A DNA stretch of 64,000 bases from Escherichia coli (GTDB lineage: Bacteria; Pseudomonadota; Gammaproteobacteria; Enterobacterales; Enterobacteriaceae): the NCBI RefSeq assembly GCF_003018255.1, contig NZ_CP027440.1; one strand, written 5' to 3'. This document shows positions 29,901 through 41,565 of this stretch, in pieces (positions within the stretch are counted from its first letter, which is position 1; every line of letters starts with the position of its first letter). The position numbers are program-made.

Positions 29901-32900
29901 GATGTTCTCCATACGTTGCCCGCACTCACTGATGCCCAGCAGGCAATCCCAGGGATTAAGTTTGACTGGGTGGTGGAAGAAGGGTTCGCACAGATTCCTT
30001 CCTGGCACGCCGCCGTTGAGCGAGTTATTCCTGTGGCAATACGTCGCTGGCGTAAAGCCTGGTTCTCGGCCCCCATAAAAGCTGAACGCAAAGCGTTTCG
30101 TGAAGCGCTACAAGCAGAGAACTATGACGCAGTTATCGACGCTCAGGGGCTGGTAAAAAGCGCGGCGCTGGTGACGCGTCTGGCGCATGGCGTAAAGCAT
30201 GGCATGGACTGGCAAACCGCTCGCGAACCTTTAGCCAGCCTGTTTTACAATCGTAAGCATCATATTGCAAAACAGCAGCACGCCGTAGAACGCACCCGCG
30301 AACTGTTTGCCAAAAGTCTGGGCTACAGCAAACCGCAAACCCAGGGCGATTATGCTATCGCACAGCATTTCCTGACGAACCTGCCTACAGATGCTGGCGA
30401 ATATGCCGTATTTCTTCATGCGACGACCCGTGATGATAAACACTGGCCGGAAGAACACTGGCGAGAATTGATTGGTTTACTGGCTGATTCAGGAATACGG
30501 ATTAAACTTCCGTGGGGCGCGCCGCATGAGGAAGAACGGGCGAAACGACTGGCGGAAGGATTTGCTTATGTTGAAGTATTGCCGAAGATGAGTCTGGAAG
30601 GCGTTGCCCGCGTGCTGGCCGGGGCTAAATTTGTAGTGTCGGTGGATACGGGGTTAAGCCATTTAACGGCGGCACTGGATAGACCCAATATCACGGTTTA
30701 TGGACCTACCGATCCGGGATTAATTGGTGGGTATGGGAAGAATCAGATGGTTTGTAGGGCTCCGGGGAATGAGTTGTCTCAATTGACAGCAAATGCTGTT
30801 AAGCAATTCATTGAAGAAAACGCTGAAAAAGCTGCCATGATTTAAATTACAACTCTTTAATAGATAATTTTGAAATAAAATCAGCTTCCTTGCTGATTTT
30901 ATTTCACATATTCATTACTTATCTAATAAACATTGGTCCGATTGTGCTTTAAAATAAGCACAAAGCAATATTATGGTGACAAACACAGCAGTCGGAACCG
31001 GTTTAGAAAAGAGTATTACATCACTTAGGCCTACTACCAGTAGTGAAAAAAGCAAGATTAAAATATAAGGTTCTTTAGCAGTTCTTAAGGCATATATGAA
31101 TATTGCTGAAAAGGCTAAAATTGTTAATGCTACTCCAGGAATACCACGCGTTGATAACGTATCTATGAGATCGTTATGCAAATGAGAATCTACAAAGGGT
31201 AAAGCGCCACTTAATCTAGGCTCTTTCTCTTCTAGTTCATGTATTTTTTCCGCACGTTTTTCCAGTGATTGTCCTATTGGAGAATATGTTTTTAAACCAA
31301 CTTCATACATTGCCAGACGGGCACCGACTGAAGTTCTGGTGTTATCATGCGAATAATTAACTAAATCCCTATTTAAGTCATTCATTCTCGTAAGTAATGT
31401 ATCTTTAAAAGAAAATACACCTGCTAATAATGCAATCGCAATAAAACAATATAACTTATAATTAATTCGCTTATTAATATAACTATCCATTACGATTAAT
31501 AGTAACGCAAAGAATGGAAACACTAATATGGCTGCACGCGTTTCAGTTACTATAACAGCACATAAGCTAAGCATGAAGTTAATTGTATATAATGTTGTTT
31601 TATGTCTAAAGTCGGATTTTAAAATGAGAATTGATGCCAGTAAAGAAGGGAAAAGGATGATGTAGCCTGCTGTTGTAGCGTGGGACGCTGATAATGCAAC
31701 ACGGTCGACGTTTAAATAGAAATGTTGCCACATGGCATGCGCAAAAAAAAGTAACTGCGTTGCCAGGGATGCGAACAGAATTAGTTTCCCAAATTTTATT
31801 TTGGTTCTCATCTCATCTTTAGCAAAAAGAACTAAGAAAATAAAAGCACTACACAAGGCAATTTTTCCAGTTTCCATTGGGCCACGATATGCATTGGTAT
31901 AAACCGAGCCTGAAACTTTATAATGTGAATACCAGATGATATTAACGATACCCAAAAGACATAATGAGATGAAAATTAACAAAGTAGGATTATTAGTTAT
32001 TGTTTTTTTTGGTGTCGCCAGAAAATATAATGCAGATATAATTCCAGCTGCATGAAGAAACTTTGTTGCAACATCATCCCACAAAGACAAAGTCATTAAA
32101 GACAACATACATAATATGAGAATTAAAGACTTGACACCAGAGTTAATTTCATTCCAACAAAACGACATATAATTTCAACCTATGCTACGAGGATGGGTTA
32201 TTTAATGCAAGACCTAACGTTTATTCTTTTTTCTACTTACCAGTCTTACCATCCTCCAGAGAATATAGTTTTTTGATGCTAATATTTTTGCTCGCCTCTT
32301 ATCTCTCTTGCCAAGAAGATTACAATCTTTCAATTCTTTTTCATTGCTTTCAACTAATTGATTTAATAATTCAAAATCGCCATTAAGTAGAACATTCCAT
32401 AAATAACGAGTTTTATGATAAGTTCTATTCTTACTCAATAATGTATGAATTTCTTCTTTCCGGTTACCTTTGTATAACTGCATCACAGAAGAGTAGATTC
32501 TTTCGTGCGCAAATGACTCATGTCGATAATGAGTGATGGTTCTACATGAGTTCATTAAGGAATTTTCTCTATAGTTATGCTTATACATATAATATGGAAC
32601 CGCATACATATCGCATGTAATTAGCAGTCGATAGATAAAATCCAGATCTTCTCCTAGTCGTAAATCTTCATCAAAAAAAAGATTATTATCTTCCAGGAGT
32701 TGTTTTCTTATAAACAAGCACCCTATATGGAATCTGACCTTTTTATAAAAAAAATCGAAAAGTAAAGACCCTTCATTAAAATCTGTATTTATAGGTGAGT
32801 AAGTAACACCATTTTTTATATGATGTCCATAAAGCCCACAATAAATCGCATCCCCTCCCGTCTCATGTTGTCTGGAATACATCTTCAGCAGATAGTTAGG

Positions 32901-38900: not shown

Positions 38901-41565
38901 ACCTCGGGCGGCGACTGTCTGAGCAATACGCATAAAATCGCGCTGCAAACCGCCAAAGGGAAAATATTTATATAAACAAAAAGCAACGATCATAACGACG
39001 TACCTGTCGTGGAGGAGGGCAGTAATTTATCGACAGCAGCAATGACATCTGCCGCCGGAATAACCGAAAGATACATCTCATTTCGGTCACGCTGATCGCG
39101 CGTTGGCATTTCCCGGTAATCTCCCGCCCAGAATTGAATCATGTTATTTGACCAGGGACGCCAGAAAATATGGTCTGTCGCACCAAACAGCGATATCAGC
39201 GGCGTATTAACTGCAGCGGCAATATGCGCCGGTGCGGAGTCAACGCCAATAAACAGCTGCGCATGATCGATTAACGCACCAAGTTCCGGGAAGGTCACCT
39301 TTCCGGCCAGCGCCATTACTGGTGGCGTCTGGCATCCCTGCGCAATTTCATTGACGCAGGCCAGATCGTCTTTATCTGGGCCGGACGTCAGAACGACTTC
39401 ATAACCACGAGCATGTAAGGCATCAATCACAGCGGAAAACTTGGCGTTGTCCCAGCATTTGAAGATTTGCCGCGCCGTAGGTTGGATAACCACATAATTT
39501 TGTCCAACACCAGCGTGATCAAGTTCGCGACGCATACGTTTCCAGCTTGCAGGCGGGTAACTCATGGTTGTCTGCTTCACCAACGAATCAACTCCCAGTG
39601 GTGTCAGCACGGATAAGTTACTTTCCACCACATTTCCACCCTGCAACGGCACCAAATGGGTGAAACTTTTACGCCAAAAAGCAGACTGCCGATGATGATA
39701 ATCCTGGGAAATTTTCACACGGGCATTTAATAAGCGCACCAGTATAGCAACCATCCATTGATCGGTAAGATTAACGATAAGGTCATACTTATTGGCACGT
39801 AATACCTTGATGAGATGGAAAAAGTTGGCAATTTTTTCTGAGGCTTTTGCTTTTTTATTTTTTATGCCGTAGAGCGCGTTAATCTCTGGATTTTCAGACA
39901 GGATCGGGATGGTGTCCTGATAAAGCAGCACATCGATTTTTGCGTCAGGGTAATTTTTTTTCAGCGAACTAATGACGGGAGTAGTTAATAACATATCCCC
40001 ATGAAAACGCATCTTAATGAGCAAAATTCTTCGAAATGGCTTATCCACAAGTAACTCTTTTTGTTGAGATTATCCGATTAAGGTGAAGCAGAAAAAGCAC
40101 GCTACCGCCCCAGGCTCAACAGCTACCTGAATACTGATACCGCACTGATATTGACGCGCTAGTGTATCACTTCTTTCGCGGCAATCCGACCCGAATGATT
40201 TTTAAGCACATTGTTGATTTTCAATAAAGAAATCAATCAAATAAAATCATTAGCAACCATATTCTTTCACTGTTGCTCTGCGATTCCTTCCTGCACGTAC
40301 TGCAGAAATCAATGAATCGCATAAAAATACAAAAAAAGTATAGATGTTCAGCAAGAATTGGCGGGTAAATTGCTATTTAAGTCAAAAACGGGAAAAGTAA
40401 TGGTAAAGCCACAGCTAAATACATAGAATCCCCAGCACATCCATAAGTCAGCTATTTACTATGCTCGAATTGCTTTACACCGCCCTTCTCTACCTTATTC
40501 AGCCGCTGATCTGGATACGGCTCTGGGTGCGCGGACGTAAGGCTCCGGCCTATCGAAAACGCTGGGGTGAACGTTACGGTTTTTACCGCCATCCGCTAAA
40601 ACCAGGCGGCATCATGCTGCACTCCGTCTCCGTCGGTGAAACTCTGGCGGCGATCCCGTTGGTGCGCGCGCTGCGCCATCGTTATCCTGATTTACCGATT
40701 ACCGTTACAACCATGACGCCAACCGGTTCGGAGCGCGTACAATCGGCTTTCGGGAAGGATGTTCAGCACGTTTATCTGCCATATGACCTGCCCGATGCAC
40801 TTAATCGTTTCCTGAATAAAGTCGACCCTAAACTAGTGTTGATTATGGAAACCGAACTATGGCCTAACCTGATTGCGGCGCTACATAAACGTAAAATTCC
40901 GCTGGTGATCGCTAACGCGCGACTCTCTGCCCGCTCGGCCGCAGGTTATGCCAAACTGGGTAAATTCGTCCGTCGCTTGCTGCGTCGTATTACGCTGATT
41001 GCTGCGCAAAATGAAGAAGATGGTGCACGTTTTGTGGCGCTGGGCGCAAAAAATAACCAGGTAACCGTTACCGGTAGCCTGAAATTCGATATTTCTGTAA
41101 CGCCGCAGTTGGCTGCTAAAGCCGTGACGCTGCGCCGCCAGTGGGCACCACACCGCCCGGTATGGATTGCCACCAGCACTCACGAAGGCGAAGAGAGTGT
41201 GGTGATCGCCGCACATCAGGCATTGTTACAGCAATTCCCGAATTTATTGCTCATCCTGGTCCCCCGTCATCCGGAACGCTTCCCGGATGCGATTAACCTT
41301 GTCCGCCAGGCTGGACTAAGCTATATCACACGCTCTTCAGGGGAAGTCCCCTCCACCAGCACGCAGGTTGTGGTTGGCGATACGATGGGCGAGTTGATGT
41401 TACTGTATGGCATTGCCGATCTCGCCTTTGTTGGCGGTTCACTGGTTGAACGTGGTGGGCATAATCCGCTGGAAGCTGCCGCACACGCTATTCCGGTATT
41501 GATGGGGCCTCATACTTTTAACTTTAAAGACATTTGCGCGCGGCTGGAGCAGGCAAGCGGGCTGA

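Follow-up and report, generated by a model that had tools for sequence, protein, structure and literature searches.

Which lipopolysaccharide (LPS) core type is encoded by the long central operon of the waa locus in this stretch of Escherichia coli DNA? The stretch comprises 64 kb of contig NZ_CP027440.1 (hereafter the window), and the operon occupies positions 30915-40048 on its minus strand. A preliminary description, made from the sequence, proposed an R1-type core on the order of the genes and kept the call tentative. That call is supported here by the identities of WaaV and WaaL, by polymerase chain reaction (PCR) carried out in silico and by alignment of the whole operon. The segment is almost certainly a complete and undisrupted waaQGPOTYWVL operon, the form that the central waa operon takes in the R1 type. 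This R1 assignment is one of genotype, drawn from gene content, order, intactness, orthology and the absence of markers of other types, whereas the sugar structure of the core oligosaccharide would follow from the genotype read together with the literature.

The practical value of the assignment is that the source strain can be placed in R1, the most prevalent core type of E. coli, which accounts for 35% of strains overall, 60% of uropathogenic E. coli (UPEC) and 93% of neonatal meningitis E. coli (NMEC) (PMC13293308). A strain's core type influences how susceptible it is to phages with the core as their receptor, how it reacts with core-directed antibodies and vaccines, and the site at which O antigen is attached. 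The operon, its enzymes, the exchange of cassettes between R1 and R4 and the control by RfaH have been known since the late 1990s, and the window adds no new biology to them; this is an ordinary textbook locus in its commonest form.

Gene content and integrity of the operon

Nine minus-strand genes had been described in the order waaQ-G-P, two GT8 genes, a kinase gene, a third GT8 gene, a GT2 gene and waaL. All of them were recovered as open reading frames (ORFs) in that order and place, and Pfam and NCBIfam agree on their families, with scores far beyond chance for all nine (Table 1); the three GT8 genes score 241-268 bits with the Pfam GT8 and GT8C models. One boundary needed correction. The waaP ORF extends upstream to a GTG codon at 37885 (268 aa), which had been given as the start, but RefSeq begins the gene at 37876, and the comparisons of WaaP length and identity below were made from the RefSeq start.

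The operon is intact throughout. None of the nine ORFs contains an internal stop, and the spacing between neighbouring genes ranges from -8 to +81 nt, with waaG overlapping waaQ by 4 nt and waaP by 8 nt. The annotation of the operon and its neighbourhood records no transposase or insertion sequence (IS) within or adjoining the waaQ operon. G+C content drops from ~50-55% in the flanks to 33-38% over 30.5-37 kb.

Assignment of the core type

Profile libraries and database names are blind to core type, and the assignment was therefore sought along other lines. Models at equivalog level for WaaV, WaaW, WaaT and this WaaL are missing from NCBIfam, and the type cannot be called by hidden Markov model (HMM): the best score of WaaV is 100.7 bits where the cut-off is 423, WaaW and WaaT stay below the cut-off of the waaO model, and an NCBIfam search with WaaL gave no match. 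The names given in RefSeq and in the clusters, such as ‘glycosyltransferase family 2 protein’ and ‘O-antigen ligase family protein’, are too general to reveal the core type. For waaO the product name in RefSeq and NCBIfam is ‘3-alpha-galactosyltransferase’, whereas the R1 literature and the K-12 annotation describe an alpha-1,3-glucosyltransferase, and the automatic galactosyltransferase name is probably misleading. Core typing was instead based on three independent lines, namely in silico PCR, comparison with reference loci and the absence of markers of other types.

The in silico PCR employed the nine primers of Table 2 in Trofimova et al. (2025), whose in vitro validation used reference strains and which assigned a type to 99% of 4,549 genomes (PMC13293308). 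Primers R1-F (32597-32615, plus strand) and R1R4-R (33419-33438, minus strand) match the window with 0 mismatches and delimit an amplicon of 842 bp, equal to the published R1 size, while the seven other primers, directed at R2, R3, R4 and K-12, find no match in the window even at 4 mismatches. The core-type PCR that had been proposed as a check thus yields the R1 amplicon only. Primers attributed to Amor et al. serve as a lead only: the R1 pair gives a 552 bp product over the waaL-waaV junction, and the K-12 pair, which gives 917 bp on MG1655, is absent from the window. The R4C4 primer of that set has no match even in the R4 locus and was set aside as unreliable.

Reference loci were taken from PCN033, assigned to R1 in Table S1 of PMC13293308, from E. 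coli C (R1), from strain 720632 (R4), whose locus was located through the waaX sequence of the same paper, and from K-12 MG1655. The decisive gene is the last transferase gene, as WaaV is the R1 determinant (PMC3526765). Its product is 99.7% identical to WaaV of PCN033 and 96.9% identical to that of E. coli C and BL21 along its whole length of 327 aa, and has no BLASTP match at E ≤ 10 to WaaX of the R4 strain 720632. With a terminal transferase unlike WaaX, the R1 call stands. The ligase separates the types in the same way, WaaL being 98.8% identical to its counterpart in PCN033 and 96.2% in E. coli C, as against 34.8% in R4 and 30.1% in K-12.

The remaining seven proteins share 98-99.6% identity with the R1 references, and six of them are equally close to R4. 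The exception is WaaW (98.5% to PCN033 and 98.8% to E. coli C, 92.4% to R4). WaaQ is 98.9-99.1% identical to its counterparts in R1 and R4 strains (73% in K-12), WaaG 99.2% to R1 and R4 (90.1%), and WaaY 99.6% to R1 and R4 (52.6%). WaaP shares 98.9% identity with R1 WaaP (83.4% with K-12) and WaaO 98.5% with both E. coli C and PCN033 (50% with K-12), while WaaT shares 99.1% with PCN033 and 98.8% with E. coli C. Overall, K-12 counterparts of the operon proteins are 30-90% identical, those of the outer core only 30-53%. Seven window proteins match the reference lengths end to end; WaaW has 342 aa in the window, PCN033 and R4 and 341 aa in E. coli C and BL21.

The operon as a whole gives the same answer. 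The order waaO-T-Y-W-V-L, given for R1 in the preliminary description, is the order found in E. coli C, whose nine genes lie in the same arrangement and align with the window over 9,134 bp without a gap, at 98.2% nucleotide identity and with proteins 96-99% identical. PCN033 also has the same gene order and is 99.0% identical over the whole operon. Searches by tblastn with WaaX, WaaU, WaaZ, WaaS and WaaB found no match in the 64-kb window (E ≤ 1e-3 for WaaX), and no evidence in the sequence contradicts R1.

Alternative readings

An R4-type core would have the same waaQGPOTYW genes but end in WaaX, which adds a beta-linked galactose to GlcII, and in the R4 ligase. The first seven genes do not tell R1 and R4 apart, and the common primer R1R4-R does match the window; yet WaaX is a 257-aa GT25 protein where the window encodes a 327-aa GT2 protein, its tblastn search is null, primer R4-F is missing at 4 mismatches, and the distant ligase lies in a segment (30765-33349) that has no nucleotide homology to the R4 locus. 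R4 is thus extremely improbable. A core of the K-12, R2 or R3 type is vanishingly so. The inner-core genes waaA, waaC, waaF and rfaD, whose products are 97-100% identical to those of K-12, could be read in its favour, but WaaS, WaaB, WaaZ and WaaU of K-12 have no tblastn match in the window, waaL is placed differently and the outer-core proteins are far from those of K-12. Neither the K-12 primers nor those for R2 (waaK-waaZ amplicon) and R3 (waaD-waaJ amplicon) match, and no ortholog of the R2 genes waaK and waaZ or the R3 genes waaD and waaJ is seen in the window; R2 and R3 are excluded by these primers and by an identity of 98-99% to R1 loci along the full length, not by gene-by-gene comparison.

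Other alternatives accept the R1 operon and question what core the cell makes. A hybrid would carry this normal operon together with a second waaX-waaL module elsewhere that alters the core. ECOR46 is such a case, and the window covers 64 kb of a genome of ~4.8 Mb, but the waaV-waaL module lies at exactly one place in each of 1,834 carrier genomes, the nearly identical chromosome of strain JNE112863 has the whole operon at one place, no IS or transposase lies in or beside the operon, and only 40 of 4,549 genomes (0.9%) were left untyped by LPSTyper, hybrids being only some of those. Such a hybrid is highly improbable. A truncated or altered core could also arise on an R1 genotype from a missense or regulatory defect below the view that ORFs afford. 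Rough and truncated variants arise readily, as with the IS1 in waaT of BL21(DE3), and waa mutants selected by phage are frequent in the literature on E. coli C. Here, however, the nine ORFs are full length and free of internal stops, the JUMPStart/ops leader is intact, and the exact WaaV and WaaL sequences recur on 527 and 558 contigs, respectively, and so are unlikely to be a private defective allele; a defect of this kind has a slim chance of being present.

The R1 reading itself carries four caveats. As a phenotype, core type is chemical and serological; what is read here is the genotype. PCN033 was itself typed in silico, so that the link to experimentally characterised R1 LPS passes through E. 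coli C at 96-99% protein identity. As WaaV, WaaW, WaaT and WaaL lack equivalog models, their assignment depends on orthology to reference strains, and a further copy of waaL or waaX outside the 64 kb is conceivable, as ECOR46 illustrates.

Regulatory elements and proposed pathway

A JUMPStart element in the waaQ leader (Table 1) contains the ops motif GGCGGTAG at 40102-40109 (minus strand) and overlaps a homolog of K-12 rirA (40092-40146), with 98.2% identity to rirA over 55 nt. JUMPStart/ops recruits RfaH for antitermination through long LPS operons. At the other end of the operon, the convergent stops of waaC (30845) and waaL (30915) enclose a perfect inverted repeat (30871-30906) whose RNA folds at -22.3 kcal/mol (z = -6.2; 0 of 200 shuffles as stable), and which is a probable bidirectional transcription terminator. 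An Rfam match of the hairpin to MIR1886 scores 29 bits against a gathering score of 62 and is spurious, without biological meaning. A promoter scan returned 35 sites where 30.8 ± 5.8 were expected, which is background, and no promoter is claimed.

Table 1. Features of the waa locus in the window.
Feature	Position	Strand	Supporting data
waaQ (rfaQ), heptosyltransferase III, GT9, first gene of the long operon	38990-40048	-	NCBIfam RfaQ equivalog 713 bits, cut-off 467
waaG, GT4 glucosyltransferase I	37869-38993	-	Pfam Glycos_transf_1 135.5 bits
waaP (rfaP), heptose(I) kinase	37079-37876 (RefSeq start, 265 aa)	-	NCBIfam RfaP equivalog 479 bits, cut-off 170
waaO, first GT8 gene	36047-37063	-	Pfam GT8 + GT8C; NCBIfam PRK15171 608.7 bits, cut-off 461
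waaT, second GT8 gene, intact	35035-36030	-	Pfam GT8 + GT8C
waaY (rfaY), heptose(II) kinase, between second and third GT8 genes	34333-35025	-	Pfam WaaY 431.8 bits; NCBIfam RfaY equivalog 401 bits, cut-off 248
waaW, third GT8 gene	33279-34307	-	Pfam GT8 + GT8C
waaV, GT2 beta-1,3-glucosyltransferase, R1-defining gene	32214-33197	-	Pfam Glycos_transf_2 134.7 bits
waaL, R1-type O-antigen (surface polymer:lipid A-core) ligase, last gene	30915-32168	-	Pfam Wzy_C 63.5 bits
R1-specific cassette (waaC 3' tip, hairpin, waaL, waaV, waaW 3' tip)	30765-33349		No nucleotide homology to R4 locus
JUMPStart element in waaQ 5' leader	40098-40136	-	Rfam RF01707, 55.2 bits, gathering score 35, E = 1e-10
Perfect 15-bp inverted repeat, 6-nt loop	30871-30906		Between convergent stops of waaC and waaL
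rfaD (gmhD)-waaF-waaC operon, inner-core heptoses, without waaL	27873-30845	+	RefSeq annotation of JNE112863
waaC, last gene of rfaD-waaF-waaC	29865-30845	+	
waaA (Kdo transferase, 40461-41738) and coaD (41746-42225), third waa operon, divergent from waaQ	40461-42225	+	RefSeq annotation

From these parts a pathway can be proposed, in which enzyme linkages, RfaH dependence, terminator function and the resulting sugar structure are taken from the literature. Transcription would begin upstream of waaQ, the JUMPStart/ops leader would recruit RfaH so that RNA polymerase reads through all nine genes, and transcription would probably end at the hairpin shared with convergent waaC. WaaA, WaaC and WaaF would supply the Kdo2-Hep2 inner core on which the enzymes of the operon act. 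To this substrate WaaG is expected to add GlcI on HepII, while WaaP would phosphorylate HepI, WaaQ add HepIII and WaaY phosphorylate HepII. According to the roles known from the literature, WaaO would then add GlcII in alpha-1,3 linkage to GlcI, and WaaT would add GalI in alpha-1,2 linkage to GlcII; GalII would be attached to GalI by WaaW, also alpha-1,2. WaaV would place a beta-1,3-linked glucose as a side branch on GlcII in a step that depends on WaaW (PMC3526765 and other literature), and this glucose would be the site to which WaaL joins undecaprenyl-PP-linked O antigen in the periplasm. The outer core expected for R1 is accordingly described as a Gal-a1,2-Gal-a1,2-Glc-a1,3-Glc backbone with a beta-1,3-Glc branch.

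Frequency and alleles

The waaV-waaL module occurs in 1,834 of 5,426 complete E. coli genomes (33.8%), once per genome, and waaX of R4 in 692 (12.8%). These counts match the published frequencies of 35.4% for R1 and 12.3% for R4 (PMC13293308). Relative to the waaV-waaL segment of the window (30915-33278), the carriers fall into two bands of identity: 608 genomes reach ≥99%, and 1,225 lie at 95-99%. The latter, more distant band includes E. coli C and BL21, whose proteins are ~3-4% diverged. The two bands probably reflect lineage variation. That they mark functionally distinct R1 sub-variants, differing for instance in the acceptor or donor preference of the ligase or in phage-receptor properties, is very unlikely.

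Some database records stand out. NZ_CM135829.1 contains the R1 waaV-waaL module at 98.6% identity under the label ‘Escherichia coli strain DH5alpha’. As a K-12 core is expected in DH5alpha, which derives from K-12, this label is probably wrong. Records classified as plasmids account for three of the matches to the waa operon and for three of those to R4 waaX, and some genomes show up to 3 operon places; these may be misassemblies or rare mobilised copies.

Genomic setting

The region around the operon (24915-46048) differs from the chromosome of E. coli JNE112863 at 3 of 21,134 positions. The locus occupies the usual waa site, in the order kbl, rfaD-waaF-waaC (plus strand), the long operon (minus strand), waaA-coaD (plus strand) and mutM. 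Its inner-core genes are highly conserved, RfaD and WaaF being 99.7-100% and WaaA 99.8-100% identical to their counterparts in K-12 and E. coli C.

Several neighbouring features vary between strains or touch on LPS. The kbl-rfaD interval (27660-27872, 213 bp) lacks htrL, which MG1655 has there; E. coli C, BL21 and the R4 strain likewise have no htrL at this site. The gene waaH (24155-25189, minus strand), ~6 kb away from the operon, encodes a GT2 UDP-glucuronate:LPS(HepIII) glycosyltransferase, and the N-terminal GT2 domain of WaaV has a weak paralogous tblastn match to it (33% over 139 aa, E = 3e-22). Further away, between yibL and lldP, a DUF3251 gene (6241-6924, plus strand) is followed by one for a 1,750-aa YadA-like trimeric autotransporter adhesin (6968-12220, plus strand). 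The segment 6241-12220, which we take to resemble the UpaG/EhaG locus, varies between strains and is unannotated at the matching site of E. coli C. E. coli C also has a rearrangement breakpoint between yibL and yhfX relative to the K-12 order (L008, 30250-31326), which is unrelated to the R1 finding.

Comparison with known systems

The operon of the R4 type, represented by 720632 and ECOR04, has the same layout with waaL at the end of the long operon. As the preliminary description had it, R4 keeps the R1 order with a different last transferase, and this is what the locus of strain 720632 contains. Proteins of waaQGPOTY and most of waaW are 97.6-99.6% identical between the two. Where the window has a GT2 gene, waaV (984 bp, 327 aa), and the R1 ligase, R4 has a GT25 gene, waaX (774 bp, 257 aa), and a ligase of 34.8% identity. 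A blastn comparison with 720632 aligns just 27805-30764 (97.8%) and 33350-41800 (98.6%), and the sliding identity profile falls to chance level in between, so that by sequence the R1 and R4 loci differ by a cassette of ~2.6 kb only. The G+C content of this cassette is ~33-35%.

The breakpoints of the cassette lie inside genes, within ~80 nt of the end of waaC and ~70 nt of the end of waaW. WaaC has 326 aa in the window, PCN033 and BL21, 323 aa in E. coli C and 319 aa in K-12 and R4; the difference between 326 and 319 aa arises because the breakpoint falls inside the 3' end of waaC. Similarly, WaaW is just ~92% identical to R4 WaaW because the 3' tip of waaW belongs to the cassette. Judged by these sequences, the C-terminus of WaaC, a conserved inner-core enzyme, differs by core type.

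K-12 is more distant. It shares the three-operon architecture between kbl and mutM, homologous waaQ, waaG, waaP, waaO and waaY genes and the JUMPStart/rirA leader, but differs in having waaS, waaB, waaJ, waaZ and waaU. Its waaL stands after waaC in the rfaD-waaF-waaC operon, on the other strand, as MG1655 confirms, whereas here it closes the long operon; this contrast had been drawn correctly from gene order.

The R1 operon is known from its prototype F470 and also from E. coli C, PCN033, the BL21 lineage and Shigella sonnei, members of which are present in the 90% clusters of both WaaV and WaaL. The waaV-waaL segment of the window is ~1% diverged from the PCN033 allele and ~3% from the allele of E. 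coli C and BL21. BL21(DE3) has the same R1 operon, but its waaT is split by IS1A (L005, 13121-14892) at a point corresponding to ~35532-35539 of the window, in keeping with the truncated core for which E. coli B is known; the waaT of the window, unlike that of BL21(DE3), is intact. Among these relatives the nine-gene operon finds its experimental counterpart in E. coli C, the classical R1 host of phiX174, in which the waa pathway has been dissected genetically.

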